Origin: Eubacteriales bacterium | GTDB taxonomy: Bacteria > Bacillota > Clostridia > Saccharofermentanales > DTU023 | Direction of reading: 5' to 3' | Assembly (NCBI GenBank): GCA_030532065.1 | Contig: JAUNLW010000001.1 | Location: 240,132-304,131, forward strand | Length of the DNA stretch: 64,000 nucleotides | Shown here: positions 3,309 to 60,508 of the stretch, one piece after another | How positions within the stretch are numbered: position 1 is the first letter of the stretch | How the letters are laid out: each line of letters opens with the position of its first letter | The notes under the pieces: model-generated | Databases searched by the model: none | The model's input: the letters and a program-made list of their open reading frames with translations, nothing else | Told to the model about the DNA's origin: nothing | Translations under genes and position numbers: made by a program

Positions 3309-3322
3309 TAAGGAGTGTACTT

Positions 3323-6022
3323 ATGCAAATAATGCAAGGGAAAAGATATTTTGACGCTCCCCCAGTTTATGAGCTCAGAGATATAGTTGCGCGTGGTAAA
3401 GAAATATATCCCGATCGCAATGCCATAGTTTATCGGGACCATGGTAGAGGTGATCCTGTTTATGTCACTTACAGCGAGCTATACGATAAAGTGCAGGCCT
3501 TTAAAGAAGCCCTGCTTCACCTGGGCTTGCGCCAGGAGAAGATCTCTCTGGTGGGCGCTAACAGCTTTCACTGGATGTTGTCTTATTTGACTATCGTGGA
3601 CCAGGTGGGCGTGGTTTGTCCGTTAGATGCCATGCTGACTGGACCGGAACTACTCCAACTTTTGCTGCGGAGTCGTTCGCGCGCTCTCTTGGCCGATATG
3701 AAGAGCCTGGAAGCTCTGGCGGACCAGATGGTTGATGCCGACATGGTTGAGCACTGGATCCTGATCAACTACGACCCCAAACGTGAAAAAGAGAATATGG
3801 AGAAATTCCGCGAACACGTAAGTGAGCTGGGCGCAAATTTTTACCTGTTAGAAGATCTTATTTCCATGGGGCAGGAACGGCTGGATCGTGGTGAAAGGAG
3901 TGAAGTCTGGCCCATTACCAGCGACGAGATGGCGGTACTGCTTTTTACTTCCGGAACCACGTCGGAATCTAAGGCAGTCATGCTCTCCAATGCCAATATT
4001 ACGGCAGACGTCAGGGCGCTTTTGGAAACGGTTGGCTTTAAAGACCCATTGAGAACGCTTTCACTCTTGCCCCTACACCACACTTTTGAGCTGACTTGCG
4101 GCTTTCTCAGTGTTCTGTCTTTGGGAGGCCAGATCCATATTTGTGACGGCCTGCGCTATATCGGAAAAAATATTGAGGAATACAAAGTGCACATGGTCAT
4201 TGGTGTGCCCAAAGTATTTGAGGCGATTTATAAACGAATCCAACAAAATATCGACCGCAGCGGTCAGCGCAAGAGCTTTAAACGTGGCTTGAGGTTATCC
4301 AAATTCCTGCTCTTCTTTGGTGTTGATAAGCGAAGAGAAATCTTCTCTGCTATCTTGGATGGCTTAGGCGGTAATTTCTATGTAGCTATTTCCGGAGCTG
4401 CGGCCTTGGATAAAGAGATTATTGATTTCTTCTACAATATTGGTATCGAGATTCTGCAGGGTTATGGCCTGACAGAAACTGCGCCGGTTATTTGTGGCTG
4501 TAATACTCAGTACAACGTGCGCGGTTCTTGTGGACAACCTCTTTCTGGCGTTACCTTAGCCATAGACGCAGATCATCCTGGGGTACCGGGAGAAATTCTG
4601 GCCCAGGGCGATATGGTCATGCTGGGCTACTACCAGAATGAGGAGGCTACCAAAGACTCCTTTGCCTCTGATGGCTGGTTTAAGACTGGCGATATCGGCT
4701 ACTTCGACAAGAAAAAGAAGGTGCTGTATCTCACTGGAAGAGCCAAGTCCATGATTGTCTTGCCTTCTGGCAAGAAAGTCTTCCCAGAGGAACTAGAAAG
4801 TTTGCTTAACGCCAATGAGATAGTGAAGGATTCATTGGTCTTCGGTCAGAACTCCGACAAGGGAGATGTGGTAATTACGGCTAAGATCGTTCTGGACCAG
4901 GATAAGCTTGCCGAAGAGAATATCTCTGACGAGAGTCTGGCTGAAACTTTGGATGAATATATTAGAGAAATAAACCGCGATTTACCCAGCTTCAAAGGTA
5001 TCCGCTCTTATGCCTACAGTTTCCAGGATATGGTCAAGACAACCACGCTAAAAGTCAAACGCCATGTGGAAACAGAACGGATTAAGAATTTACTGCAAAG
5101 AGAAAAATTAGGCTGGCGTGACTTAAATGGTGTAAATCTTGACTTGTTAGAAGCTGGACTGCAGCAGGAAAAATCAGCTGCTGACGCAGAAACAGCCAGC
5201 GCTGAGCCGGAGCTTGGTAAGGCACAACTAAGACCGACACCCGTAGACAAGTTGGCAGCATCTAGAACTACGCTTAATGTTGCGGCAGGCTTAGACTGGG
5301 ATCAGCTGGAAACCCAGGATATTTACCTGGCAAAAGTTGAGAGTGTAGCTGCCTATGACCGAGAGTTAAGACGACTCAAGCGAGAACTGGATGAGGAGTT
5401 GGCTATTGATATCTTGCGTCAGGGCCAAGAAGAAGACCTGATCTACATGAAGGAAAATGAGGAGCGTAAGACGCTGCAAAGCCAATACCAGGACAATATC
5501 GAGCACCTGCACGAGGAGTACAGACAAAAATTACTGTCTTTCCGCTCCAAGAATGAAGATGAGAATCTGCAAAAGAAAAACCTATACCAGCAGAGCAACA
5601 ATGCCCTTATCAAAGACTTCTTCCGTGATTTGGGAGAATTTAATCAACATCTGCCTGAACATAAGAGTATGACAAAAGAAGAGAAGCAGCAGCGCAAACA
5701 GGCAGAGAAAGCATTGAAAGCCAGCCTTAAGGCTAACGCCGCCGCGGATAAGAGACAGCGTAAGGCCTTCAAAAAGCAGCTTAAAGATCAGCACAAACTC
5801 TTTGAGTCTCAGATTAAGCAACGCAAAATAGAGCGTCAGGGCCGTTATAAGGCTTATCAAAAAGAACTGAAGCAGCGCCGTGAATCAGACCAGAATCAGT
5901 ATGAAGAGCTCAATCGGGACATTAACAAGGCTCTGAGCGCTAACCGTCAGCTGAATCAGGAACTGCGTAAAGAACAGTCTGACCTGCTTAAGCATATTAA
6001 AGAAAAAAATCGGCAGTATTAA
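3323..6022 (+). CDS. AMP-dependent long-chain acyl-CoA (or acyl-ACP) synthetase fused to a ~300-aa charged coiled-coil C-terminal extension
   Basis: AMP-binding motifs are LLFTSGTTSESKAV, GYGLTETAP and WFKTGDIGY, and an SD TAAGGAG precedes the ATG. Residues ~600-899 are K/E/Q/R-rich heptad-like sequence. Confidence 0.8.
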   Translation: MQIMQGKRYFDAPPVYELRDIVARGKEIYPDRNAIVYRDHGRGDPVYVTYSELYDKVQAFKEALLHLGLRQEKISLVGANSFHWMLSYLTIVDQVGVVCPLDAMLTGPELLQLLLRSRSRALLADMKSLEALADQMVDADMVEHWILINYDPKREKENMEKFREHVSELGANFYLLEDLISMGQERLDRGERSEVWPITSDEMAVLLFTSGTTSESKAVMLSNANITADVRALLETVGFKDPLRTLSLLPLHHTFELTCGFLSVLSLGGQIHICDGLRYIGKNIEEYKVHMVIGVPKVFEAIYKRIQQNIDRSGQRKSFKRGLRLSKFLLFFGVDKRREIFSAILDGLGGNFYVAISGAAALDKEIIDFFYNIGIEILQGYGLTETAPVICGCNTQYNVRGSCGQPLSGVTLAIDADHPGVPGEILAQGDMVMLGYYQNEEATKDSFASDGWFKTGDIGYFDKKKKVLYLTGRAKSMIVLPSGKKVFPEELESLLNANEIVKDSLVFGQNSDKGDVVITAKIVLDQDKLAEENISDESLAETLDEYIREINRDLPSFKGIRSYAYSFQDMVKTTTLKVKRHVETERIKNLLQREKLGWRDLNGVNLDLLEAGLQQEKSAADAETASAEPELGKAQLRPTPVDKLAASRTTLNVAAGLDWDQLETQDIYLAKVESVAAYDRELRRLKRELDEELAIDILRQGQEEDLIYMKENEERKTLQSQYQDNIEHLHEEYRQKLLSFRSKNEDENLQKKNLYQQSNNALIKDFFRDLGEFNQHLPEHKSMTKEEKQQRKQAEKALKASLKANAAADKRQRKAFKKQLKDQHKLFESQIKQRKIERQGRYKAYQKELKQRRESDQNQYEELNRDINKALSANRQLNQELRKEQSDLLKHIKEKNRQY

Positions 6023-6070
6023 GCACTACTGCTGATTGACTTTGCTAAATTTTCGGAGGGAAGTAGATGA

Positions 6071-6811
6071 CTAGTAGCCAAGTTCTGACTGCCATTCTTG
6101 GAACTTTTGCTCTAAGGCAGCATTTAGCTCCTTGGCGTCATCAAAATCGCCACCCTCTATACAAGTAGCAAAATAGAGGGTCAGATTCTTAGGATGACCT
6201 TTCTTGTCGCGGAAACGCGGTAGTTTCTGGCCGGGAGGCCAGATATCGTGGCCGCCCTTAATATAAACAGGTAAAATAGGAGCCTTGTATTTATAACCTA
6301 AATAAGCTGCTCCGGATTCAAAATGGCCTAGCTTGCCATTACGGCTACGCGTTCCCTCTGGATGGATAAGGATGTTGTTACCTTCGGCCATGGCATTCTT
6401 AGCGATAATGAGGCTACGAACAGCGCCTTTGCCTTTGCGGTCCACTGGTATACCTCTGGCTGCAACGGTCATTAGCTTACCTATGAGTCCGTAATCGGTC
6501 TTGAGGTCAGCGCCGATCAAGGCACAAGTACGGTCGCAGTGGTCGGGAGGAAGAGACTTTAAAATCCAAACGGCATCAATAAAGGTAACGTGGTTGGCGA
6601 TGATCACATAGGGACGATCTTGAGGGATATGCTCTCTTCCGATGATCTGCCAGTTAGCGCGTCTCCGAGTCAAGTTAGCCACAAAGTTAAGCAGCCAATT
6701 CCCGAAATAGGTGCGTGGACCAGGAATGTGGGAATGAGCCAACCGCTCATTCCTCTCTTTGGCTTTTGCTTTTCTTTCACTGTAAGCTTGCAGGCTATCT
6801 CTATCTTCCAT
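6071..6811 (-). CDS. 1-acyl-sn-glycerol-3-phosphate acyltransferase family (PlsC-like)
   Basis: It carries the HX4D motif NHVTFID and the PEGTRS block. It lies 7 nt downstream of tadA on the same strand. Confidence 0.8.
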   Translation of the reverse strand: MEDRDSLQAYSERKAKAKERNERLAHSHIPGPRTYFGNWLLNFVANLTRRRANWQIIGREHIPQDRPYVIIANHVTFIDAVWILKSLPPDHCDRTCALIGADLKTDYGLIGKLMTVAARGIPVDRKGKGAVRSLIIAKNAMAEGNNILIHPEGTRSRNGKLGHFESGAAYLGYKYKAPILPVYIKGGHDIWPPGQKLPRFRDKKGHPKNLTLYFATCIEGGDFDDAKELNAALEQKFQEWQSELGY

Positions 6812-6817
6812 ACGTGG

Positions 6818-7384
6818 CTATACCTTTGCTTCAGGATCAGTTGATTGCTGACGTCGTTCTTGCCAGGCCTCCAAGGCGGCCAACTTGCGGGCGGCGGGAC
6901 CACCAACTTGCTTTTTCTCTAACCGTCGCTCTTGAAAAAAATCTCGCAGGAGACGGCTGGAATCCTCTGCCAGGAGGCCTTCTTCCACCAGAGGCTTAGG
7001 TCCCAGATCCAGCAGGAAGAGTTGACAGGCCGAGACTACAGCGCCGGTCTTAGCTTGCCGACAAGCAAAGACCACCCGACCGATATGGCTATTAAGAATA
7101 GCGCCGGCGCACATTGGACAGGGTTCCAGGCTTACATAAAGGGTACAGTCATCTAAATGCCACGTACCAAGTTTGTCAGCAGCCCGTCTTATGGCCAGCA
7201 TTTCGGCGTGAGCGGTTGGATCTTGTCGATAGTTCGACTCGTTTTTGGCTCGCGCGACTATTTTGCCCTCACAAATTAAGACCGCCCCCACGGGTACATC
7301 ACCCAAGTCGGCGGCAGCTCTGGCTTCTGAGAGGGCCAGTTCCATCATAGCGTTATCAAACTCGCTAAAGGTCACTGTAGTCAC
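6818..7384 (-). CDS. tadA: tRNA-specific adenosine deaminase
   Basis: The CDA zinc motifs HAEMLA and PCPMCAGA are present. There is a ~30-aa charged C-terminal extension. Confidence 0.9.
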   Translation of the reverse strand: MTTVTFSEFDNAMMELALSEARAAADLGDVPVGAVLICEGKIVARAKNESNYRQDPTAHAEMLAIRRAADKLGTWHLDDCTLYVSLEPCPMCAGAILNSHIGRVVFACRQAKTGAVVSACQLFLLDLGPKPLVEEGLLAEDSSRLLRDFFQERRLEKKQVGGPAARKLAALEAWQERRQQSTDPEAKV

Positions 7385-7401
7385 TTAAGTCCCTTTTTCT
7401 C

Positions 7402-7430
7402 TTGCAACTGGCTTAGCTTTTCCATAGAAT
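7402..7430 (+). promoter_or_regulatory. Sigma-70-type promoter for the 7524 gene
   Basis: TTGCAA (7402-7407), a 17-nt spacer, then TAGAAT (7425-7430). Confidence 0.5.
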
Positions 7431-7523
7431 AATACAACGTAACATTTTAGACAAACCAGGCGGACCACAGACCTTGTGGGGTGGGGTCCCTTGGATACTT
7501 CTATTAAAGGAGATATAAGTTTA

Positions 7524-8252
7524 ATGGCGTTGAAAGAAGGACGTTGCTATAACTGTGGTTCTATTCTCATGCTGGATCCGCAGCAGGAGAAAGGGCACTG
7601 CATCTATTGTGACGCAGTTTTTGATAACAAGCTCGCTTTTGAGATTGCGACCAATCCTCAAGGCTATGAGTTCAAAAATGAGAAGATGGAAAAATACACA
7701 GGTCCCAACCTGGATCCGACCAGTCAGACAGGTGCTATAGATGAGGACGCCCTGCATGCTGCCATTGATCATAACGCCGCCAAACGGGCACTTAAGCAGC
7801 AAGATAGCGTGGGAAAGCCCAATCTGTCTGAAGAGAGTATTCCCGAGCTCAAGGCTTCTAAGAAAGCTGTGCTGATTACTATTTTAGGTATTGTGATCTT
7901 TTTTGGCCTTTTCTTCGCCATTGCTATTCCCAAAATTAATCATCGCGAAGAAGTGCGCAAACAACTTACAGCCAACTTCATCGACGCCGAAAAACTACCA
8001 CTCACTTATGGCGAGAACTTATTGATCCGTGGTGGCGCCAACGACACTGTTGTGATGGCTTTCAAAGAAAAACCGGAGGAAGATACTGTAAGGAGCTACT
8101 GGGAGACTTATGCTCAAGAGCGCGCCAAGCTTCTTGATCTGGAAGGCGACGCTAAATATAAAGGCCTGGAAATGGAAGTTATCTCCGCTGATGGCGGTTA
8201 CCTGCTCACTTGGACTCCAGAGAATAAGTTGAGCGTCGAGCCCATACAATAA
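7524..8252 (+). CDS. Hypothetical zinc-ribbon protein with one central TM helix
   Basis: An SD AAAGGAG precedes ATG 7524; the ORF-track start at 7476 has no SD. It has a CxxC...CxxC ribbon (CYNCGS...CIYCDA) and a TM segment AVLITILGIVIFFGLFFAIAI. Confidence 0.55.
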   Translation: MALKEGRCYNCGSILMLDPQQEKGHCIYCDAVFDNKLAFEIATNPQGYEFKNEKMEKYTGPNLDPTSQTGAIDEDALHAAIDHNAAKRALKQQDSVGKPNLSEESIPELKASKKAVLITILGIVIFFGLFFAIAIPKINHREEVRKQLTANFIDAEKLPLTYGENLLIRGGANDTVVMAFKEKPEEDTVRSYWETYAQERAKLLDLEGDAKYKGLEMEVISADGGYLLTWTPENKLSVEPIQ

Positions 8253-46299: not shown

Positions 46300-46410
46300 A
46301 GACTAATCATAGGGGATAAGAGACAGCTTGCAAAGGACTTTTTGTTTGCTATAAACTGGAATGAAATAAGCAGAAAGGATCTAATTCTCTTCGAGAATTG
46401 TCAGATAATT

Positions 46411-47043
46411 ATGATTAATGTTTTCCGAGGCCATAGGTATCCTAAAATTATTGTAGCTTTCTTATGCCTGGCTTTTTGCCTAACTACCGTAGCTTGCCAA
46501 GGCCTTTCTGAATTTGGCCTGTCAACCGATAAAACCGCGTCTGATGCAGACTCTACGGTCGAGAGTAAAGTCGCCTCATACACCGGCCCCACTGGAGCTG
46601 AACCCAGAAAAGATTCTGACTTTGGCCAACTAAGCCTGGAAGACCAGGACTTACTCTTAACTTGGATGGACAGCGTTAAGACTAGCTACCAGGCCTTAGC
46701 GTCAGAGTTGTCTGATTTTTCAGGTCAACTGCCTGAGCTAAAGGCGGAAATGCAGGAAAAAGCCAAGCTGGCAGAGTCGGAGATTTTCCAAAATTTCAAG
46801 AATAAGTGCCAGGAAGAGCTTGACAAATTAAAAGCTTATGCCGAGGAGAAACTTCCCGAGGGAGCAGATAAGATCAAGGAGCAGGTCAATAAGCTCAACG
46901 GTCTTTACCAGGACTTTTTAGACAGACTGAGCCAGGCTGACAGCAAGGCAGATGATTTCTCCGATCAGCTGCAGGAAGATGTAAACAAGCTGATTAGCGG
47001 CTTACAGGATGTTCTGGATGCTTTCTTTGATTTCAAGTCCTAG
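46411..47043 (+). CDS. Putative lipoprotein with a helical, coiled-coil-like ectodomain
   Basis: The signal peptide KIIVAFLCLAFCLTTVAC has an imperfect lipobox. The remainder is E/K/D/L/Q-rich helical repeats. Confidence 0.45.
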   Translation: MINVFRGHRYPKIIVAFLCLAFCLTTVACQGLSEFGLSTDKTASDADSTVESKVASYTGPTGAEPRKDSDFGQLSLEDQDLLLTWMDSVKTSYQALASELSDFSGQLPELKAEMQEKAKLAESEIFQNFKNKCQEELDKLKAYAEEKLPEGADKIKEQVNKLNGLYQDFLDRLSQADSKADDFSDQLQEDVNKLISGLQDVLDAFFDFKS

Positions 47044-47071
47044 TACTTCAAGTGAAACAGCGCACATTTTT

Positions 47072-47103
47072 AAAAGGCGGGTCTTTGGAGGATCCGCCTT
47101 TTT
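47072..47103. terminator. Bidirectional terminator between the lipoprotein gene and the response regulator gene
   Basis: AAAAGGCGGGTC-TTTGGAG-GATCCGCCTTTT. Confidence 0.75.
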
Positions 47104-47141
47104 GCATACAAGCAAAGATAATTTATGGAAAAACTCGTTCT

Positions 47142-47756
47142 CTATATTTGTTCTGGTACGATATAGCCCTTGGAAACCGCGAAGATCGCCAGTTGGGCAA
47201 TACTGGAATAGCCGGTCTTGGCCAGGATACGGTTGATATTATTGCGCACGGTATTTTCAGAGAGAAAGAGTGCTTCGGAAATCTCCTTACGGCTTAAGCC
47301 TTTGCAGACCAGGCGGAGAATATCCATCTCGCGCTCAGTCAGGTCCAGTTCGACCGCGCTGCTGCTCTCTTCTTCAGGAAAGGTATGGTAGTCATGCATT
47401 GTGCTCTGGATGCTTTTCAGCAACTGCTCTCTACCTACATTTTTGTAAACGAAGCTATCAGCCCCAGCTTCTTTGGCAGCGGTGACAAAAGACATATCAG
47501 GCATACCGGTCATAAGAATAACTTTGATTTGCGGGAAGCGTTCTTTGATCCGCTTAGCTTCCACGATGCCGGATTGACCCTCATCGTTGCAGATATCCAT
47601 GAGTACCAGATCGGGTTTATAGAATTCACAAAGGTCCACTACCTCGCCTGCGTAGGTAGATTTAGCCACGATCTCAATCTCATCGGACAAACTAAGTGAG
47701 TCTGCCAGTGAGTCTAGAAGGATCTGCTGGTCTTCTATCAGAATTAATCGTATCAT
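47142..47756 (-). CDS. NarL/LuxR-family response regulator (REC + HTH_LuxR)
   Basis: The REC domain has DLVLMDI and KVILMTG. The HTH is LSRKEISEALFLSENTVRNNINRILAK. Confidence 0.92.
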   Translation of the reverse strand: MIRLILIEDQQILLDSLADSLSLSDEIEIVAKSTYAGEVVDLCEFYKPDLVLMDICNDEGQSGIVEAKRIKERFPQIKVILMTGMPDMSFVTAAKEAGADSFVYKNVGREQLLKSIQSTMHDYHTFPEEESSSAVELDLTEREMDILRLVCKGLSRKEISEALFLSENTVRNNINRILAKTGYSSIAQLAIFAVSKGYIVPEQI

Positions 47757-47931
47757 TTATTACTCGTCCTTCCTCTTGCTGTCACTTACAGCTTAGTAGA
47801 CACTGATTTAATCCTTAATGAATCTATATTATAACACAGGCCATTTAGGTATCCGAAAAACAGGAATGTGAGCCTTCTGTAACTTCCTCAAGAGGAGATA
47901 GCTTATAATAAGAAAAATCGGAGGAAGCAAT

Positions 47932-50667
47932 TTGCGGAGTCAGAAATTAAGACATCTAAGAATGACCAGTGCAGAGCAAACCACTGCTGGCCGCCTTAAG
48001 AGACTGCTGGTTGCTTGTTTGCTGTGCCTGTCGTTGCTTAGCATATTTGACGGTGTGCCTACTACTGTGGCAGCCTCTACCGGCATGGGTATAGAGGAGC
48101 CAGACCTGGCTCTGGAAGCTCCCATCTATTATTTTGATTATCCCGGTTCCCTCTTTTCCAATGCAGTTTTGGGAAATTTTCCTTTTTCCTATATTGAGCG
48201 CTTGAAGAGCGAGACTTCGGTGCACCAGGAAGAACTGGCGGACAGTCTCATGCTCTTACCGGAAAATCGCGCTCATACGCTGCGGGCTAATGCGGCTAAT
48301 CAGAGCGAGGTAGCCTTTGAGCCTATATATGAGGCCAGCCTGGTAATTGCCTACGATAGTGAACGGATCAGGCATGATCTTAGAAGTTGGAAAGATCTTC
48401 TGATCGTTGCCAAAGCTGGTGAGTTACCAGAATTAGGGGTGCTGCTGGAACCGGAGTATGTCCTGGCCAGCGCGGCGCTGTATCTGGATCAGTCGGAAGA
48501 CGCGGAATTGATAAGGACGCTGGCAGAATTAAACGACCAGGGCAAACTGAAGCTTTTTAGAGGCTCAGATGCAAATTCAGGCTGGCCAGTTTCTTTGATC
48601 TCTGGTGGACTGGAGACCAGAGAATTACCGGCAGTATTATTACTATGGGATTATCAAGCGGCTCAGATCAACCGTAAGCTGGGCAGCAACTCCTATACTT
48701 TCCACTTACCTTATGAAGGCAGCTTAAGTCTGTCTTTCGGCCTTTACGCCAATGGAAGAAAGGCAAAGAATACACTGGAAAGCCGTTTACAGGAAGAAAC
48801 AAGGTTAAGTCTGGCAGAAAACTTCATCGCTTTTGGCTATCGCATGGCAGACGGAAGCTCACCTCGTACACTTAAAGCATTTTCCAATCCGCTTCTGGGT
48901 GATGAAGTTTCTACTTATGGCTATCCGGAGCCGGACGAGTATCGTGCCCCGGCCATGACCTACCGGGATTATGGAGACTTGAACCAGATCTTCCTTAGCT
49001 CTACGGCAAAACTCAGGCGTGATGTGCTGGGGAAGAGTGTTATCTTACCGGCTACACCTGAAGAAGAGCACGTGCTTCTAGTGTTACTGATCCCAATTTT
49101 TCTGATCTGGGCAGCTACCATCTTCTTCCGCATCGACGATGTGGCGATCAGGCGCTCTATTACCTTGCTTTCGCTCTGGTTCTCCTTGGCTATTATCCTC
49201 TTCTTTGTGCAGACCATGTACGCTAACAGCGCCCGGAACGATATCATCTATTACATTCGCTTCCTGCCTTTTGTTGGCATGATCGAATCCTGGTTCTACA
49301 CAGGTTTTAGTCTGGCTCGCAGCCAGGGACTGATCAAGGAAAGACACCGTCGTCTGCCATTGCTTTGCAGCATGATCTTTTACGCTCTGGGTGTTGCCTT
49401 TGTGCTCAATGACCTGCACGGCTATGCCTTTACCCTGAGCCCCTTCATGCGTATCCAAAAACTGGGTCCCCTGGGCTATCTACTGCTTTTGGCTATCTTA
49501 GGACTCTGGCTGGCAGGATTTTTCTTGCTGCTCAAATGTCAGGCCAAAATCTATACCTCCACCTGGGTCTTCCCGTTGGCAGCTTTTGTTGCGCTGTGCG
49601 CGCTAAACATCTATCTGTTTATCAGTGATGGCAGTTTGCGCTCCACCAGCTTTGATCTGCTCAATCTGGTTGGTATAGCAGTGATCTTGGAACTTAGTCT
49701 GCAAACACGCTTGATCCCAGCCAATTCGGGTTATATCAAGCTTTTCCGCTACAGTAATGTTGGCCTGCGCCTGATCAACGAAGACCGCTCAGAAGTTTAT
49801 CCACCAGAAAGAGACAACATTCCCTCGGCCTCTGCGGCCTTGATCAACGAAGCCATAGAGCAGGATCTAGCCTCCAGGCCGGAGAACTCAGGCGTGGGCG
49901 TGGCTGTACCCAGTGCGGAGCAAGAGGGCCTTATTTACCATACTTCCAAAATCAATGGTGGCTATCTGATTTGGGAGGAAGATATATCAGATGTTTTAAA
50001 ACTCAAGCATGAGCTGACCTATCTTATGGAACGCCTGGAGCAACAGGGCAGAATTTTGGCTCGTAGACGTAATATTCGCGGTCAATACCTGTCTATGAAA
50101 ATTCGCCGAGAAATGATGCAACGTCTTGAATCCAGTCTCTCAACGCAGCTGCAAGAGATAAGAAAGAGCCTGCGCGAGATAGAAGCTTCTGAAGACAAGA
50201 ACTTTGTCCGTCAGGAACTGGGACGCGTCAAGATCATGGTCTCTCAGTGTAAGCGCAAAAGTAATCTCCTGGTTAGAGCGGAGGCTGAGATCCAGGCAGA
50301 AGAAGTCTCGCTTATTTTTAACGAAGCTTTGCAGGATGCCGGCACGGCGGACATAAGCGGCTTAGTGCTGGTACAAGGCTCAGTGCCCTTAGCAACCGAT
50401 ATTCTGCTGGCTCTCTATGACTATGTCATGTACCTGCTAGCTAAAGCAGTGGGTTTAAACTCCACCAGCCTTTTCCTGAACTTGCGCTGGGACCAGGAAA
50501 AACTGACTTTACAGATTATCTTCAGCTCGGCTGAGCCCAGCCCCGAAAGTTTTTTCCAGCCGGGATCAGATCTTCTGCCGGAACTCCGGCGCCTTAAACT
50601 TGACTTACACATAGAGGTCGATGGCAATGACTGCAATATCCGCATTGTGAGAGAGGAGGGAAAATAG
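47932..50667 (+). CDS. Large membrane sensor-like protein: solute-binding-protein-like ectodomain, ~7 TM helices, coiled coil, and a degenerate (His-less) HisKA_3/HATPase-like module
   Basis: TTG 47932 lies 6 nt after GGAGGA. There is a signal/TM segment, then a ~330-aa domain with a PBP-like pattern (SLVIAYDSERIRHDLRSWKDLL). The TM block spans residues ~385-620. The C-terminal part aligns by eye to the downstream kinase, but IRREMMQRL replaces IHDVMGQRL and there are no N/G boxes. Confidence 0.6.
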   Translation: MRSQKLRHLRMTSAEQTTAGRLKRLLVACLLCLSLLSIFDGVPTTVAASTGMGIEEPDLALEAPIYYFDYPGSLFSNAVLGNFPFSYIERLKSETSVHQEELADSLMLLPENRAHTLRANAANQSEVAFEPIYEASLVIAYDSERIRHDLRSWKDLLIVAKAGELPELGVLLEPEYVLASAALYLDQSEDAELIRTLAELNDQGKLKLFRGSDANSGWPVSLISGGLETRELPAVLLLWDYQAAQINRKLGSNSYTFHLPYEGSLSLSFGLYANGRKAKNTLESRLQEETRLSLAENFIAFGYRMADGSSPRTLKAFSNPLLGDEVSTYGYPEPDEYRAPAMTYRDYGDLNQIFLSSTAKLRRDVLGKSVILPATPEEEHVLLVLLIPIFLIWAATIFFRIDDVAIRRSITLLSLWFSLAIILFFVQTMYANSARNDIIYYIRFLPFVGMIESWFYTGFSLARSQGLIKERHRRLPLLCSMIFYALGVAFVLNDLHGYAFTLSPFMRIQKLGPLGYLLLLAILGLWLAGFFLLLKCQAKIYTSTWVFPLAAFVALCALNIYLFISDGSLRSTSFDLLNLVGIAVILELSLQTRLIPANSGYIKLFRYSNVGLRLINEDRSEVYPPERDNIPSASAALINEAIEQDLASRPENSGVGVAVPSAEQEGLIYHTSKINGGYLIWEEDISDVLKLKHELTYLMERLEQQGRILARRRNIRGQYLSMKIRREMMQRLESSLSTQLQEIRKSLREIEASEDKNFVRQELGRVKIMVSQCKRKSNLLVRAEAEIQAEEVSLIFNEALQDAGTADISGLVLVQGSVPLATDILLALYDYVMYLLAKAVGLNSTSLFLNLRWDQEKLTLQIIFSSAEPSPESFFQPGSDLLPELRRLKLDLHIEVDGNDCNIRIVREEGK

Positions 50668-52236
50668 ATGTTGTACTTTTATGAGATCCCCCAAACCTTG
50701 CGCATGGCTTTGCAGATCTTTCTCCTGGCCGGTATCGCCAGTCAAATGGTACTAATGCTTATGTACTCCTTCTTCCGCAGGGGTCGTCAATATATTCTCA
50801 ATTTCTTCTTAGAGTTGGGAATCCTGTATTTCTTTATCATGCTTAACCTGTCATTGGGCTTTATCCAGTTAACTGAGCCGAAAAACCTGATCGTCTACCC
50901 TTATGCGGAATGGCGCAATCTAGGTATGCTAGCGCCCATTTTGGGTATGCCGGTGTTGATGAATCAACATCGACAAAGCGACCTGATTGCCATTCTCTGC
51001 CTGATTTTTACCTTGCCCTTTATGGAGGCTCTGGCTGGGGTCTGGTATGTCAATCTCTGTGCGTTTTTTACGGCCATTCTGCTGATTCGTTCCGCCTATG
51101 AGCTCAAGCAGAATCTCTCACATCTCAAACAAAACATTACTCGCTTTTCCATGAAACAGGCTTTTGACACCTTCCCGGAAGGCCTGGCCATAGGCCGCCA
51201 ACACGGAAGTCTTATTTTTACCAACGCCAAAATGCGTCAGCTGATGGCAGACAAAGGACTGGCGCAGGATAAGAGAACTTCTGGCCTGCGCGTAGCCTTT
51301 CGCCGCATGTTGAAAGAAGAAGAACTCGCGGCAAAACAGGCTGATGCCAGTTCGCTTACGCTTACACGCATCTCTTTGGAACAAGAGATAAGGCAGAAGA
51401 ATGAGCAGGAAGCGAAGAATAACCGCAGCTCCAGGCGTCGTGCGCATGACAGTGACGCTACGGAACCGGTACCCAACCTGCGCAGCTTTGAGAGCGGCGG
51501 GCACATATACCGTTACCAGGAAAGCAGCTTACAAGTTGGACATAAGACTTACTGGGAGGTCTTGATTAGCGATATCAGTGAGGAAAGTCACCTCATCCAG
51601 GAAATCCAGGAAAAAAACCAGGATCTGGCACAAAACAATCAACAGCTGGGCATGATGCTGCAAAATATTGAAGAGATCGAACTGGAAAAAGAAACTCGCC
51701 GTATGCGTAATCGTATCCATGATGTTATGGGACAGCGCTTATCCATCCTGCATTCCAGTCTGCAACAAATGGATCGGAGGGAAGAAGTACCTCTGACCGA
51801 TCTTTTAGACCTCCTAGAAGATATGATGGATGACCTGCAGGAAGGTGAGAAATTTGATAGTGAGCAGATATTCCACAATGTTCAAAATACGGCCGATATT
51901 GTAGGTACTAAATTAGTCAAACAGGGTGACATACCGTCTAACGAAGAAATAGCTACTGTTTTTCTGCAAATTTTGAGAGAAGCCGTAACTAACGCGATAC
52001 GCCACGGTCAGGCAGACGAAGTCTTAGCTAAATTCTATGAAGATGAGGAAAACTATTATATGGATATCAGCAACAGTGGCCGCCTGCCAGATCAGATCGT
52101 ACAGGAAGGCGAAGGTATCAGCGGTATGCGCCATAAACTAGCCGGCCTGGCCGGTCACCTGGAGATCGAGACCCGTGATACCTTTACCATCAAGGTGCGT
52201 GTGCCACATTTCGATAACTTGCCGGTAAAACCCTAA
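50668..52236 (+). CDS. Sensor histidine kinase, HisKA_3 (NarX/LiaS/DegS) type, with a 5-TM N-terminal domain
   Basis: The H-box is RNRIHDVMGQRLS (His351, nt 51718-20), the N-box is REAVTNAIRHG, and the G-box region is EGEGISGMRHKL. Its ATG abuts the upstream stop (TAGATG), and its SD GAGGAGGG lies inside the upstream gene. Confidence 0.85.
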   Translation: MLYFYEIPQTLRMALQIFLLAGIASQMVLMLMYSFFRRGRQYILNFFLELGILYFFIMLNLSLGFIQLTEPKNLIVYPYAEWRNLGMLAPILGMPVLMNQHRQSDLIAILCLIFTLPFMEALAGVWYVNLCAFFTAILLIRSAYELKQNLSHLKQNITRFSMKQAFDTFPEGLAIGRQHGSLIFTNAKMRQLMADKGLAQDKRTSGLRVAFRRMLKEEELAAKQADASSLTLTRISLEQEIRQKNEQEAKNNRSSRRRAHDSDATEPVPNLRSFESGGHIYRYQESSLQVGHKTYWEVLISDISEESHLIQEIQEKNQDLAQNNQQLGMMLQNIEEIELEKETRRMRNRIHDVMGQRLSILHSSLQQMDRREEVPLTDLLDLLEDMMDDLQEGEKFDSEQIFHNVQNTADIVGTKLVKQGDIPSNEEIATVFLQILREAVTNAIRHGQADEVLAKFYEDEENYYMDISNSGRLPDQIVQEGEGISGMRHKLAGLAGHLEIETRDTFTIKVRVPHFDNLPVKP

Positions 52237-52346
52237 AATGTCGTAAAATCAGGACTTTTGACGAACTTCTACATTATTTACCTAGCTCTTACTTGCGAGA
52301 ATTAAGAACGTCTTAGAGCGACACTAAATTCTCAAGGAGGAGCTTT

Positions 52347-54416
52347 ATGTTTAGAAGTCTTGATCAGCAGAACCTAAAAAATATTCCCATTCTGCTAAAA
52401 AGCCTAAGCCTGATTATACTGCTTATGCTTTTATGTTACCTGCCCCAAGAAGTAGAGGCCTTGACCATCCGTCACGAACCAGTACGAAATGAAAAATTTT
52501 TTGTCCGTGTCAATATGCCTGATTACGTTGAAGAGAAAGGACCGGGTTCTTACTCTGAACGAGTTGCCAGTTTCTATCTCAACTCCCACTATCCGACCCA
52601 ATACCCGAGTTTAACCTGCTTTTGCATCGAACCTTTCATTGCTATAGACGCAGGTGAGGTGACCTACAACAGTCAGGATCTTGCCTCATACCTTCAGGAA
52701 TATTACGGTTATTCACCGGACGCTGCTCAGAGAAAGGCACGCGACCTGGCAGAGGTAAGTTACTTTGCTCTGGGTGCCATACCTGCCTCGCAGCGTACTT
52801 TAGAAGATCAATTCACCTGTCAGTTACTTTTGTGGGAAGAGTTGGGTTATGAAGTTCATTTGGCCGACCCCTACTGGTATAAGCTTGGTAAAGAAAAAAT
52901 GCGTCAGCGTCGCGGGGAATACTACCAAAGACACAGCCTAGAGGGTGAGACCATTGAGTTGGAACCAGGCGGCCAACTTAGCCTCCAGGACAGCGGTTGG
53001 GCAAATCTACTGCCGGCAGCTGGATTTAGTCCCGGAAATCCAAAGGCACTTGACGAAGAAGGTCAACTCAGCCTTACCTGGAACGGAGCGGATCAGGTGG
53101 TGCTGGAAGCCTCGCGTGATTTTCAAACCGATACCAATGTGAGCATAGTAGCTGGATCATCTAACCACAATGTAGGGGCCTATGTTGCCGCCAGCAGCCA
53201 ATCCGTAGTAGAAGTTTGCAGCAGGGCTCCGCTCAAGCAACTAAACTTCAGCGTCGTATCCAAAGAAGCTCCCAGCTCCAGCTTTAAATTACAAAAGATG
53301 GCAGAGCAGATTGTAAGCTGGGAAGAGGTTGACAAGATACGGGTAAATGAAAAAGAAGAGTCAGTTTACCGTCCCTTAAGAGAAGTCAGACCGTTGGCCG
53401 GTGTCAACTTTAGTCTCACACTAAAGGAAGAATTATGGTTTAAGGGTGAGCACTATGAGCCAGATGATTTAGTGTATGAATTTACTACTGATGCGAATGG
53501 CGAGGCAATACTGGAAGAGATACCCTGCGGTAATTATCTGCTCACTGAAGAAAGCCAGGACCTTAACTATTTACCTTTGAATTCCATCAGCATTGAGATT
53601 GTTCCGGATGAAATATCCGTAGATGAAGCAGAACCATATATTGTCAACAATGAACGACGTGCCTTTGCTTTTAGCGCCATCAAGCAGCTGGAAGGAGCTA
53701 AGGATCTTAGCTACGACGAGGTGTCATCTGTCTTGCGGGAACTGAAGTTCGTGCTGCGTACCCAAGAAGACTTACCGGGTCTGGAAGAGAAATTACCTGC
53801 CGGTAGTTTGGTAGCCTGTTCGTCACTGGAGCCTTTGGAGCCATTGCTGCCACAGGCAGATCCGGCACAGGGCCAGAGCGAGTCAGAAGATGGAAACACC
53901 CTTGCTTCAAGTGATCAGCAGGAAGTGCTGAGTTTTGCTGATATGTTCCCGGCTAAAGATATCCTGAGAAAGATCAGTTTCGACTTACCTTGTTTAGCAA
54001 CGTTTAGTCTGGAGGAAGTAAATCCTGGCAACATCTACCAAAGACTGGAACCCATAGAATTAGACTTCAAAAACTTCTCAGAGCCTGAAGTTGACGCTTG
54101 GGGAGGTTATCGTTACACGCTGATGGCTCCTTTAGTAAATAAGCTGGTCCCACCGGAAGAAGTAGTGGAAGATCCCCAACCAGTTACACCGGCCCCCATA
54201 CCTGTAGAGGAGCCCGAAGCTACAGATCCACCAGTAGTTTATTTCCCCACTAATCTGGAGCAAACCATACTGCCAACGCAAAATGTAGAGGCGCCTGATT
54301 TTCTCACGCAGGTTAAGAATCTGCCGGCTACCGGTTCCGCTGAGTCCAATAAATTGGCTGCCATAGGTCTGGCTCTGGGAACTCTTATCCTTTCCGGCAT
54401 AAACAAAATTAATTAA
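52347..54416 (+). CDS. LPXTG-anchored surface protein with a thioester-domain-like N-terminal region and CnaB/SpaA-type fold domain(s)
   Basis: It has a signal peptide, a FCIE motif (Cys93, nt 52623-25) and a CQLLLW motif (Gln159, nt 52821-23). A prealbumin-like block reads GVNFSLTL...TTDANGEAILEEIPCGNYLLTEE. A Pro-rich stalk is followed by LPATG plus a TM helix plus a short tail. Confidence 0.7.
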   Translation: MFRSLDQQNLKNIPILLKSLSLIILLMLLCYLPQEVEALTIRHEPVRNEKFFVRVNMPDYVEEKGPGSYSERVASFYLNSHYPTQYPSLTCFCIEPFIAIDAGEVTYNSQDLASYLQEYYGYSPDAAQRKARDLAEVSYFALGAIPASQRTLEDQFTCQLLLWEELGYEVHLADPYWYKLGKEKMRQRRGEYYQRHSLEGETIELEPGGQLSLQDSGWANLLPAAGFSPGNPKALDEEGQLSLTWNGADQVVLEASRDFQTDTNVSIVAGSSNHNVGAYVAASSQSVVEVCSRAPLKQLNFSVVSKEAPSSSFKLQKMAEQIVSWEEVDKIRVNEKEESVYRPLREVRPLAGVNFSLTLKEELWFKGEHYEPDDLVYEFTTDANGEAILEEIPCGNYLLTEESQDLNYLPLNSISIEIVPDEISVDEAEPYIVNNERRAFAFSAIKQLEGAKDLSYDEVSSVLRELKFVLRTQEDLPGLEEKLPAGSLVACSSLEPLEPLLPQADPAQGQSESEDGNTLASSDQQEVLSFADMFPAKDILRKISFDLPCLATFSLEEVNPGNIYQRLEPIELDFKNFSEPEVDAWGGYRYTLMAPLVNKLVPPEEVVEDPQPVTPAPIPVEEPEATDPPVVYFPTNLEQTILPTQNVEAPDFLTQVKNLPATGSAESNKLAAIGLALGTLILSGINKIN

Positions 54417-54441: not shown

Positions 54442-54475
54442 TACCCCTGTTCAGCAGAGCAGGGGTATCTTTGTT
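54442..54475 (+). terminator. Terminator after the surface-protein gene
   Basis: TACCCCTG...CAGGGGTA is followed by TCTTTGTT. Confidence 0.6.
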
Positions 54476-57250: not shown

Positions 57251-57965
57251 GCCTCTGCCAGCTGTCTTACGCCAGTACCACCTGGGCTGGCAAATGGTTT
57301 TCCGCCCGGTCTGGGGTTTGGGGCAGCTGCTGTTTCGCCCGCGATATCAGGGACTTGACCTGCTGCCTAAAGAAGGGCCTTATATCCTGGCGGGTAATCA
57401 TCAGAGTAACTTTGACGTGATTCTGGTCCATGCCGCCATGCCTCAAGCGGTGCGTTGGGTGGCCAAAGCAGAACTTTTTAATACACCCCTGATATCTCAC
57501 GCGGCGCGCACCTTGGAAGCCATTCCTTTAGATCGTTCTCGCGCGGATATAGCCGCGGTGAAGTCGATCCGTTCAAGTTTAAAAGAAGGCAGGGTAGTGG
57601 GTATATTTCCTCAGGCTACGCGGGTAAAGGAAAAAGATTTAGCAAATAAGCTGCCGCCCGATTCAGTTATCCGTCTTCTGGCTCGCTCCAAAGTGCCGAT
57701 CCTTCCCTTTGCCATCCAAGTGCCACTTAAACCATTCCGCAAGACGCAAGTGGTTTTTGGTCGGCCCTTTTATTTAGCGCCTGAGGCAGCAAAAAAACCG
57801 AAAGAAGCCAAACACTATTTAATGGCAAAAATATTCCAGCTGCTTGACAGGCCACCGGACTTGCCCTTGGAGGAGTGGCTTGCCGGAGGGTGTGATTTGG
57901 AGCTTATAAGTGAAAATAAACGTTCGACAGACATTATTGACAGAGAAAAAGAAGGTGAGAGTTGA
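57246..57965 (+). CDS. plsC: 1-acyl-sn-glycerol-3-phosphate acyltransferase
   Basis: It has the HX4D motif NHQSNFD and the FPQATR block. ATG 57246 overlaps the cmk stop. Confidence 0.82.
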   Translation, partial: CRPLPAVLRQYHLGWQMVFRPVWGLGQLLFRPRYQGLDLLPKEGPYILAGNHQSNFDVILVHAAMPQAVRWVAKAELFNTPLISHAARTLEAIPLDRSRADIAAVKSIRSSLKEGRVVGIFPQATRVKEKDLANKLPPDSVIRLLARSKVPILPFAIQVPLKPFRKTQVVFGRPFYLAPEAAKKPKEAKHYLMAKIFQLLDRPPDLPLEEWLAGGCDLELISENKRSTDIIDREKEGES

Positions 57966-57970
57966 CAACC

Positions 57971-60508
57971 ATGAATAACGCATGGAAAAGAGTGACAGAT
58001 TGCAATTTGGATATAAAAATCGCAGAGTCGGCCGGCTTTTGCCCCGGCGTCAAGCGGGCAGTGGACCAGGCTTGGGAGCTGACGAAGATTAAAGATCTGC
58101 CGCTTTATATGTACGGAGAAATTGTCCATAATGAGCAAGTGGTCCAGGAATTGCTGGACCAAGGGTTTCAGCTGGCGCACAGTCCAGAAGAAGTAAGCGC
58201 TCCAGGTATTTGCCTGATTCGGGCTCATGGAATACGTATTGAAGAAGAACTGGCTCTAATAGAAAAAGGCGTGGAGCTGGTTGACTGTACCTGTGGTTGG
58301 GTCAAGCGCCTACATGAGCTGGCTACTAGCTGCAAAGAAGAGGGCGATTGTCTAATCCTCTGTGGTGACCCTAAGCACCCGGAGATGCAGGGAATTTTAT
58401 CTCGGGCGAGTAAAGATACGCTGGTAATAGACAGCCTGGAGCAGGCAGAAGCTATATCCGATGAAGGAAAATCTTATATTTTAGCTGCGCAAACCACTTT
58501 TCCCGCGGTAATATTCAAAAAAATCACAAAAAGCTTGCAAACAAGCCTGTCCAAGTTAAAAATATTTGATACAATATGCTTTACAACTGCAAGAAGGCAA
58601 GAAGAAGCCCGGCTTATCGCTGAGAGTTCTGACTTAGTGTTGGTCTTGGGAGGAGCGCATAGTTCCAATACCAATAAATTGCTGAGCATCTGCCGCCAGG
58701 CTTGTAGTGAAACATATTTAATTCAACGGCCGGACCAAGTCCTCGCCATTGCTGAAGGCAGGGACTTGCGACAGATGCGAATCGGAATAACAGCAGGAGC
58801 GTCAACACCGGAACGTATGATCAGGGAGGTTACTTACGTAATGACAGAAAATCAAGACTTCAGCGCAGTAAAAGATGAAGAAAAAACTGTAGCAGCTGAA
58901 AGCCAAGAAGTGGCTGAGGAGCTCAGCACTGAGCCTCTGAAAACAGAGGAAACCGGTATTGACACAGCAGAGCAAGCTAAGCATGAAACCGCCGCGCCGG
59001 CAGGGAAAAAAGATGACGAAGAAGAATTCAGTTTCTCCGACTATATTGAAGGCATTCCCCAACTGAAGCGTGGCGCTGTTGTTAAGGGCACCATCGTTCG
59101 TTACGATGACGAGTACGTCTATGTGGACGTTAAAGACAAGTCCGAAGGCAAGGTGCCCCGTCACGAGTTCGTGGATGATCCTGACTTTGACTTAGATAAA
59201 GCTATCGCTAACCATGAGCAAGTAGAAGTTTATGTCCGCCACATCAAGAATACTGATATGGGCAAGGAAATTTCTCTGTCCAAGGCCAGAGTAGACTTCG
59301 AGCGCCACAAAGAAGTTATCCGCAAGGCTTTTGAAGAGCAAACTCCTATTGCCTGCAAAGTTACCAATATCGTTAAAGACGGTGTTATTGCCAGTTATGG
59401 CAGTGTAGATCTCTACATCCACCGTACTCAACTGGAACTCAGAGCCGTGGAAGATCTGGAACCCTATCGTGGCCAGACCTTAGAAGTTTTAGTTACCCAA
59501 TTTGACCCCTACCGCAGAAGACTCAGAGTCAGCGGTTCTCGCCGCGCTTTATTACAAGCTGAGCGCGCCGAAAAAGCTAAAGAACTGTGGGCCAACATTG
59601 AAGTCGGTAAAGAGTATGAGGGTGTTGTACGCAGCCTGACCTCTTTCGGTGCCTTCGTGGACATTGGTGGTGTAGATGGCTTAGTACACGTTTCCGAACT
59701 TTCCTGGAAACGCATCAAGCATCCTTCAGAAGTCGTACAGGTTGGCGATCATCTCAAGGTATTCGTACTGGATTACGAGCAGGAAAAAGACCGTATTTCT
59801 CTGGGCTACAGAAGACCGGAAAACGATCCTTACTACAATATTGAAGAGCGCTTCCCTCAGGGAAGTATTGTTCGCGGTATCGTAGTACGCATGTTCCCCT
59901 TTGGCGCATTCGTAGAGATCGCCCCCGGCGTAGATGCCCTTTGCCACGTGTCTCAAATCTCTACCTACCATCTGAATCATCCTGAAGATGTACTCCAGGT
60001 AGGTATGGAAGTAGATGCAAGAGTGCTTTCCGTAAGTGATAAGGAACGCAAGATCTCTATCAGCATCAAAGATGTAGAGCCTATCGATCCTGCAAATCCT
60101 GAGGATTTCATTCAGCACAAGCCTCGCGAAAACCGTGGCCGTGACGAAGATAACTCCGAGCGCCCTCGCAGAGAGAGACGTTCTCGTCAGGACAACCGCG
60201 ATCGCAATCGTGACCGTTCCGGCACTAACTATGTAGACTCCACCGGTGGATCTTCCCTGGCTTCCTTAGCTAACGTGACAGTTTCCAGTGAAGCCGGTGC
60301 CGAACTGGTAGAAGCTCTGAGAGAGCAAGAAGAAGCTGCTGAAGCCAAAGCTAAGGAAGAAGCTGAAGCCAAGAAGGCTGAGGAGATCGCTGCTCGCAAG
60401 GCAGCAGAAGCAGAAGCCAAGGCTAAAGCCGAAGCAGAAGAAGCTGCTCAAGCTGCAGAGGCTGAGGCAACTGAAGAACAGGCTGAAGAAGCCCAACCTG
60501 AAGCCTAA
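57971..60508 (+). CDS. ispH: Bifunctional 4-hydroxy-3-methylbut-2-enyl diphosphate reductase (IspH) / 30S ribosomal protein S1 fusion, with an Ala/Glu/Lys-rich tail
   Basis: The three IspH cysteine blocks are GFCPGVKRAV, DCTCGWVKRLH and DTICFTTARRQ. Four S1 repeats follow (e.g. GVVRSLTSFGAFVDIGGVDGLVHVSELS). The last ~90 aa are an EAKA-type low-complexity tail. Confidence 0.9.
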   Translation: MNNAWKRVTDCNLDIKIAESAGFCPGVKRAVDQAWELTKIKDLPLYMYGEIVHNEQVVQELLDQGFQLAHSPEEVSAPGICLIRAHGIRIEEELALIEKGVELVDCTCGWVKRLHELATSCKEEGDCLILCGDPKHPEMQGILSRASKDTLVIDSLEQAEAISDEGKSYILAAQTTFPAVIFKKITKSLQTSLSKLKIFDTICFTTARRQEEARLIAESSDLVLVLGGAHSSNTNKLLSICRQACSETYLIQRPDQVLAIAEGRDLRQMRIGITAGASTPERMIREVTYVMTENQDFSAVKDEEKTVAAESQEVAEELSTEPLKTEETGIDTAEQAKHETAAPAGKKDDEEEFSFSDYIEGIPQLKRGAVVKGTIVRYDDEYVYVDVKDKSEGKVPRHEFVDDPDFDLDKAIANHEQVEVYVRHIKNTDMGKEISLSKARVDFERHKEVIRKAFEEQTPIACKVTNIVKDGVIASYGSVDLYIHRTQLELRAVEDLEPYRGQTLEVLVTQFDPYRRRLRVSGSRRALLQAERAEKAKELWANIEVGKEYEGVVRSLTSFGAFVDIGGVDGLVHVSELSWKRIKHPSEVVQVGDHLKVFVLDYEQEKDRISLGYRRPENDPYYNIEERFPQGSIVRGIVVRMFPFGAFVEIAPGVDALCHVSQISTYHLNHPEDVLQVGMEVDARVLSVSDKERKISISIKDVEPIDPANPEDFIQHKPRENRGRDEDNSERPRRERRSRQDNRDRNRDRSGTNYVDSTGGSSLASLANVTVSSEAGAELVEALREQEEAAEAKAKEEAEAKKAEEIAARKAAEAEAKAKAEAEEAAQAAEAEATEEQAEEAQPEA

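Follow-up and report, generated by a model that had tools for sequence, protein, structure and literature searches.

The gene at positions 52347..54416 (+ strand) of a 64,000-nucleotide stretch of Eubacteriales bacterium DNA (contig JAUNLW010000001.1; the whole stretch is referred to here as the window) very probably encodes a sortase-anchored, TIE-type covalent adhesin that has a predicted internal thioester between Cys93 and Gln285 and a CnaB stalk. The open reading frame (ORF) is complete, starts with ATG and encodes 689 amino acids (aa). An earlier note, based on the letters of the sequence, had raised the possibility of a TIE-type thioester adhesin with an LPXTG signal, a proposal that was borne out by the family profile, hhalign, AlphaFold2 and Foldseek results given below. 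The ORF and every motif listed in that note were confirmed, and the residue numbering was exact: FCIE with Cys93, CQLLLW with Gln159 and Trp163, KLQK at 314, GNYLLTEE at 395, NNERRA at 434 and LPATG at 659-663.

Thioester domains (TEDs) carry three motifs, [YFL]CΦζ, TQXXΦW and ΦQζΦΦ (PMC6194298; PMC4450167). The first lies on a beta-strand and provides the Cys that forms the bond, whereas the ΦQζΦΦ motif, which is weak and lies on a late beta-strand, provides the bond-forming Gln, to which the host Lys becomes attached (PMC6194298; PMC4450167). The remaining motif, TQXXΦW (TQxA(I/V)W in an older notation), is found on a central helix adjacent to the bond; the Gln and Trp of this motif are dispensable for bond formation and are incompletely conserved (PMC6194298; PMC4450167). 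It is referred to here as the helper motif.

Conservation was assessed in a set of 15 sequences that share about 25% identity. Ten real relatives were obtained when 1.84 billion representatives were searched exhaustively with HMMER; one of them, P0001, is 74% identical to the adhesin and the others are 25-32% identical, and all ten have the same length and architecture as the adhesin. An eleventh match (P0011) was a low-complexity spurious match and was dropped. Four further members came from reference metagenome-assembled genomes (MAGs) labelled Clostridiales, Bacillota and Oscillospiraceae, and were reached via the neighbouring IspH-S1 gene. The adhesin itself completed the set. The order of its parts is signal peptide, Class II TED, two CnaB domains, Pro-rich stalk and LPATG sorting signal, as follows.

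52347..52460, + strand: Sec-type signal peptide, aa 1-38, with a basic n-region, the hydrophobic segment SLSLIILLMLLCYL and probable cleavage after VEA (inspection of the translation and alignment of the relatives).
52461..53264, + strand: predicted Class II thioester domain, aa 39-306 (family profile, hhalign, AlphaFold2 model, Foldseek).
52623..52625, + strand: codon of Cys93 (FCIE), the predicted thioester Cys (invariant in 15/15 sequences; aligned with SaTIE Cys296; on a beta-strand in the model).
52818..52835, + strand: CQLLLW, aa 158-163, the helper TQXXΦW motif, with Cys in the place of Thr, on helix alpha2 (aligned with Gln350 and Trp354 of SaTIE ATQMLIW).
53199..53201, + strand: codon of Gln285 (SSQSVV), the predicted thioester-forming Gln and predicted site of cross-linking to the target (invariant in 15/15; aligned with SaTIE Gln467).
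53280..53666, + strand: CnaB-type isopeptide domain 1, aa ~312-440 (Pfam SpaA, triad, AlphaFold2, Foldseek).
53667..54152, + strand: CnaB-type isopeptide domain 2, aa ~441-602 (triad, model, Foldseek).
54153..54320, + strand: linker rich in Pro and Glu, aa 603-658, which presumably crosses the cell wall (composition of the translation; length varies among relatives).
54321..54413, + strand: sorting signal consisting of LPATG (aa 659-663), a hydrophobic segment and a short, single-Lys tail (LPxTG present in all family members).

Evidence for a divergent Class II thioester domain

When a profile built from the TED-domain alignment of the family (11 members) was searched against the PDB, the sole PDB family matched was the SaTIE TED (6fx6, E 1.3e-9), the match running through the ATQ helix; a phmmer search of PDB sequences with the whole adhesin returned nothing. 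The family was then compared by hhalign with a reference Class II TED alignment of five sequences (SaTIE and four homologues from enterococcal plasmids); PF08341 recognises four of the five. The two alignments matched over 180 columns with a probability of 99.25% and an E-value of 5.1e-20, and Cys93, Gln159 and Gln285 of the adhesin were paired with Cys296, Gln350 and Gln467 of SaTIE, respectively. MAFFT independently gave the same four residue equivalences, including that of Trp163 with Trp354. The SaTIE numbering was checked against PMC6194298 and matched for Gln254, Cys296 (the only Cys), Gln350 and Trp354 in ATQMLIW, Gln467 and Gly502.

[quoted passage not shown] The sandwich insert corresponds to beta-strands in the approximately 90 residues between the third helix (176-193) and Gln285. 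Cys93 was placed on strand 91-93, Gln159 in helix 152-165 and Gln285 at the edge of strand 287-289. Three structures, 6fx6, 6fwv and 6fwy, were the only Foldseek matches at E<=0.001; all are Class II TED structures, and the best was 6fx6 (E 3e-10). On the basis of these alignments and the modelled fold, aa 39-306 are predicted to form a genuine, very divergent Class II TED.

Several observations weigh against this interpretation of the protein. In the Pfam and NCBIfam scans the adhesin gave zero matches to PF08341 (TED), PF20610 (TED_2) or TIGR03934 (TQXA), even at E<=10; the NCBIfam TQXA model matched no family member, and the Pfam TED model touched four of the 11, with a best E-value of 2.6e-4. 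With HMMER alone (hmmalign), confident alignment to SaTIE was limited to the central helices, so that hhalign was needed for the flanks. The Foldseek TM-scores were moderate (0.55/0.62 to 6fx6 and about 0.3 to 6fwv and 6fwy), which is probably due to the orientation of the lobes. The residue that precedes Gln285 is a non-hydrophobic Ser, although the ΦQζΦΦ motif is described as weak (PMC6194298). With regard to anchoring, the C-terminal tail has a single basic residue, the Lys, and a search of the 64-kb window for the sortase TLxTC motif gave one match only, in a 96-codon ORF, which was discounted. Likewise, no sortase family was present among the family matches listed for loci L001 and L007-L011. 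The earlier note had treated the absence of a TED or TQXA profile hit as grounds for rejecting a TED. That absence was literally what the scans returned for the adhesin; nevertheless, kinship with TEDs was recovered by the family profile and by structure prediction, and the absence of a curated profile hit is therefore a poor criterion.

The motifs by themselves were also evaluated. The Cys motif and the Q..ΦW motif occurred together at the spacing seen in the adhesin in one of the 62 ORFs of at least 150 aa in the window, namely the adhesin ORF, and 46 times (0.23%) when the adhesin protein was shuffled 20,000 times. The pair is thus suggestive and not decisive; it is the homology that settles the question.

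Assignment of the predicted thioester-forming residues

All three motifs were located in the adhesin. The Cys motif is F92-C93-I94-E95 on a strand, the bonding-Gln motif is S-Q285-S-V-V on a late strand, with the Gln invariant in 15/15 sequences, and the helper motif is C158-Q-L-L-L-W163 in a helix, its Thr being replaced by Cys in the adhesin and in P0001. The choice of Cys93 as the candidate thioester Cys in the earlier note was supported, since Phe-Cys is invariant in 15/15, the Cys aligns with SaTIE Cys296 and it lies on a strand of the model. In SaTIE the Cys296-Gln467 bond has been demonstrated by crystal structure and mass spectrometry (PMC6194298).

The same note had paired Cys93 with Gln159, 66 residues away, and had suggested either a compact variant with atypical spacing or a false positive. 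A compact thioester domain in which Cys93 is bonded to Gln159 of CQLLLW is extremely unlikely. Both residues do lie within motifs that resemble TED signatures, Gln159 is kept in 14 of the 15 members, and the helper Gln adjoins the thioester in solved TEDs (PMC6194298). However, Gln159 aligns with the helper residue Gln350 of SaTIE and not with the bonded residue, Gln467, whose counterpart is Gln285; moreover, its position is helical, and the Gln residues that form the bond are found on strands (PMC6194298; PMC4450167). One relative (P0010) has Lys at the position of Gln159 and yet retains Cys93 and Gln285, and in Cpa the thioester is not lost on mutation of the TQXXΦW motif (PMC4450167). Furthermore, the TED of the adhesin is not compact, as the full Class II sandwich was present in the model and matched by Foldseek.

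Nor is the spacing atypical. The distance from the Cys to the helper Gln, 66 residues in the adhesin, is 54 in SaTIE and about 54 in EfmTIE86, and is ordinary; the distance from the Cys to the bonding Gln is 192 residues in the adhesin (Cys93-Gln285), compared with 171 in SaTIE and 204 in EfmTIE86. The apparent anomaly arose because the helper motif and the bonding-Gln motif had been merged. The alignments accordingly assign Gln285, and not Gln159, as the predicted bonding partner of Cys93.

The positions that are invariant in 15/15 sequences are Phe92-Cys93, Pro96, Gln285, Lys317, Glu401, Asn435, Lys446, Glu557, Asn598 and the LPxTG motif. The helper motif varies in the same sequences: Thr is replaced by Cys, Leu, Ala or Val, Gln by Lys once (P0010) and Trp by Tyr three times. 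The remark in the earlier note that the Gln motif of the adhesin reads CQ instead of TQ was correct, most relatives having ATQxxLWE at the same columns. Invariance of Cys93 and Gln285 together with a variable helper motif is the pattern that the literature gives for TEDs, in which universal conservation is limited to the Cys and Gln of the bond (PMC6194298; PMC4450167).

Loss of the thioester from a retained TED fold, which would leave the CnaB stalk with a module that binds non-covalently, is an unlikely alternative. The failure of the curated TED and TQXA profiles on the adhesin, the Thr to Cys change in the helper motif and the presence of additional Cys residues beside the thioester site would be in keeping with such a loss. 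On the other hand, Cys93 and Gln285 are the only residues of their kind in the TED lobe that are invariant through about 75% divergence, and this invariance in a fast-evolving protein is not easily accounted for unless the bond is under selection.

The additional residues, which flank the predicted thioester site, are Cys91 (52617-52619), on the strand of Cys93 and two positions ahead of it, and Cys158 (52818-52820), in place of the helper-motif Thr. Within the family they are confined to the adhesin and P0001, the relative with 74% identity, and may form a disulfide or serve some redox function.

The predicted isopeptide stalk and cell-wall anchor

Downstream of the TED, the Pfam SpaA model matched aa 348-421, in domain 1, above its cut-off (E 4.9e-6). 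The AlphaFold2 model of aa 306-604 (pLDDT 85.8) consisted of two beta-sandwich domains, the first with a pLDDT >90, and the best Foldseek matches to this stalk model were BaTIE, the Lactobacillus rhamnosus SpaA pilin, Clostridium difficile CbpA, GBS52 and a CnaB2 domain. Each domain contains a triad that is invariant in 15/15 sequences, Lys317/Glu401/Asn435 in domain 1 and Lys446/Glu557/Asn598 in domain 2, and in each the Lys is placed on the first strand, the Glu on a strand of the YxLxE type and the Asn on the last strand. From the conserved triads and the model, isopeptide bonds are predicted between Lys317 and Asn435 (with Glu401) and between Lys446 and Asn598 (with Glu557). The proposal of at least one CnaB/SpaA-like domain was therefore upheld, the SpaA match, the folds and the invariant triads giving two.

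Domain 2 of the model also contains a disordered acidic, Pro-rich loop at aa ~500-530 (~53844-53936) with a pLDDT <50. This loop is far longer in the adhesin and P0001 than in the rest of the family.

The LPXTG anchor models scored just under their cut-offs (Gram_pos_anchor, E 0.01; TIGR01167, 15.7 bits compared with 15.9). By inspection, LPATG at 659-663 is followed by a hydrophobic stretch; the signal peptide was likewise judged by inspection.

Sequence divergence in the adhesin family

The ten relatives were recovered by the exhaustive HMMER search only. A word-indexed protein search with the TED domain or the family alignment as query gave no matches, although relatives were present in the collection, and a locus search with the single adhesin protein as query gave nothing. 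The clusters to which the relatives belong comprise about 29 sequences, nearly all of them from metagenome assemblies, and the sole source name attached to these clusters, taken from MAGs of Eubacteriales/Clostridiales, is "prealbumin-like fold domain-containing protein".

Positional orthologues of the adhesin share 26-30% identity, a much lower figure than that of Cmk and IspH (56-66%), the ~500-aa protein (48-58%) or the regulator (69-73%). By this comparison the adhesin appears to be a fast-evolving positional orthologue, and it is because of this fast divergence that the curated profiles miss the family. At loci L007-L011 the adhesin and a ~230-aa protein share 24-36% identity with their counterparts, as opposed to 48-73% for the adjacent genes. 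The contrast points to diversifying or relaxed selection on surface-exposed proteins.

Genomic neighbourhood

A Logan contig matches the window. The flanking features of the adhesin gene are as follows.

46342..52236, mixed strands: upstream module of a gene for a 233-aa protein (+), a LuxR/GerE response regulator gene at 47142-47756 (-) and genes for a 911-aa (+) and a 522-aa (+) membrane protein.
52334..52342, + strand: ribosome-binding site AAGGAGGAG, called strong, which ends 4 nt before the ATG (direct reading of the sequence).
54442..54467, + strand: terminator-like hairpin with an 11 bp stem and a T-rich tail, 3' of the adhesin ORF.

The order of the module beside the adhesin gene was the same in the window and in all five loci with full flanks (L007-L011), with the regulator divergent. 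In the four reference MAGs (L012-L015), where the flank starts inside the ~900-aa gene, the ~900-aa and ~500-aa genes lie directly upstream in 4/4, and the ~900-aa, ~500-aa and adhesin genes co-occur in the same four of 66 reference loci. At L009 the downstream housekeeping block (M50, ScpA, ScpB, Cmk etc.) has been replaced and the module has been kept. No Pfam family was assigned to the 911-aa or 522-aa proteins; for the 522-aa protein the HATPase_c model gave a weak match (E 0.0013), and a stretch resembling a HisKA_3 H-box, RIHDVMGQRL, could be picked out by eye.

The adhesin and the upstream module may constitute one cassette in which covalent adhesion is switched by a dedicated sensing system, and in the adhesin and P0001 Cys91 and Cys158 may add a redox layer through a disulfide or thiol exchange. 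This is a speculative reading that we regard as rather unlikely. No description of a dedicated sensing module or of a redox layer of flanking Cys residues was found in the TED papers that were read.

Two other genes were observed in these regions. At L011 an extra gene of 342 aa (6803-7831, - strand), with a faint 2-oxoacid_dh match, lies between the ~500-aa and adhesin genes. In the window, positions 57962-60508 encode an IspH (LytB)-S1 domain fusion, whose nearest relatives in reference genomes are from uncultured Clostridiales/Oscillospiraceae MAGs (64-67% identity); the organism of the window is thereby assigned to that lineage.

Comparison with known thioester proteins

Internal Cys-Gln thioesters that capture nucleophiles covalently also occur in complement C3 and alpha2-macroglobulin. 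These proteins differ from TEDs in their unrelated fold and adjacent CGEQ motif, and are eukaryotic or periplasmic.

SaTIE (6fx6; Class II, Cys296-Gln467) was the best match to the TED of the adhesin both by sequence profile and by structure. The likeness extends to the motifs, AFCIEP in SaTIE being CFCIEP in the adhesin and ATQMLIWELLG being TCQLLLWEELG, to the bonding Gln in the same aligned column, and to the beta-sandwich insert, with CnaB domains and LPXTG downstream. The two proteins share about 14-19% identity; in the adhesin the helper motif is 12 residues further from the Cys and the bonding Gln 21 residues further, and the helper motif has the Thr to Cys change. SaTIE comes from a plasmid record and is a protein of 1223 aa with one Cys in all, in which an extended region of repeats at the N terminus is accompanied by two ester and four isopeptide domains, whereas the adhesin is chromosomal, has 689 aa and contains 8 Cys. 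The 6fx6 query fragment was found to be encoded, at 100% identity, within an ORF at positions 3053-6724 of locus L002, the Inc18-type Enterococcus faecalis plasmid LR962419.1, in which no feature is annotated over that ORF. Related genes on enterococcal plasmids adjoin genes for LysM-domain proteins.

BaTIE (Bacillus anthracis BasC/BA5258; 6fwv) resembles the adhesin in having an N-terminal Class II TED, tandem CnaB domains, an unstructured linker and LPATG. It was the best structural match for the stalk and the second for the TED. It differs in having three CnaB domains instead of two, shares about 12% identity with the adhesin and is recognised by standard annotation. The Class I TEDs (SfbI, FbaB and Cpa of Streptococcus pyogenes; CpTIE; PnTIE) have the same chemistry and motif logic but are without the beta-sandwich insert of roughly 75 residues, and none was among the 50 best structural matches to the TED of the adhesin. 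In SfbI, Lys100 of the fibrinogen Aα chain is joined to the Gln of the ΦQζΦΦ motif (PMC4450167).

Proposed mechanism and significance

In the proposed mechanism the protein would be exported by the Sec pathway and its signal peptide removed, after which a sortase encoded elsewhere would cut at LPATG and link the protein to peptidoglycan. The Pro-rich linker would span the wall, and the two CnaB domains, each self-locked by a Lys-Asn isopeptide bond, would form a stiff stalk that presents the TED. Within the TED, Cys93 and Gln285 would form the internal thioester autocatalytically with release of ammonia, and Gln159 and Trp163 on helix alpha2 would pack against the thioester without forming it. 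A nucleophile of the target, by analogy the epsilon-amine of a Lys, would then attack the thioester to give an isopeptide bond to Gln285, freeing the thiol of Cys93. The links between other TEDs and their targets are reported in a preprint to be reversible and pH-tunable (bioRxiv 10.64898/2026.02.05.703941).

The same chemistry may serve a role other than host attachment, the TED being directed at other bacteria or at the cell's own matrix in aggregation, biofilm formation or stabilisation of mating pairs. We regard this as possible, if doubtful. A Class II TED adhesin of Bacillus subtilis pLS20 is required for efficient conjugation (PMC8092201); in addition, the TEDs recovered as references come from enterococcal plasmids and the organism is an uncultured anaerobe without pathogen context. 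In contrast, the adhesin gene is chromosomal, its surroundings are housekeeping genes, and conjugation genes are absent from its vicinity in the window and at L007-L011.

The mechanism set out above is a known one, and these results do not reveal a new one; what is added is a divergent member of the TED adhesins. For mutagenesis, the residue to choose is Gln285 and not Gln159, a correction that would spare an experiment on the wrong residue. TED counts from PF08341- or TQXA-based surveys are too low, and the family alignment could seed a better profile. The fixed place of the gene behind a sensor/regulator module offers a route to the regulation of the adhesin. Covalent thioester adhesins have been studied mostly in pathogens and on plasmids, whereas the family to which this adhesin belongs appears, from its sequences and their locations, to be a chromosomal, fast-evolving TED subfamily of an uncultured, Oscillospirales-like lineage of Clostridia.

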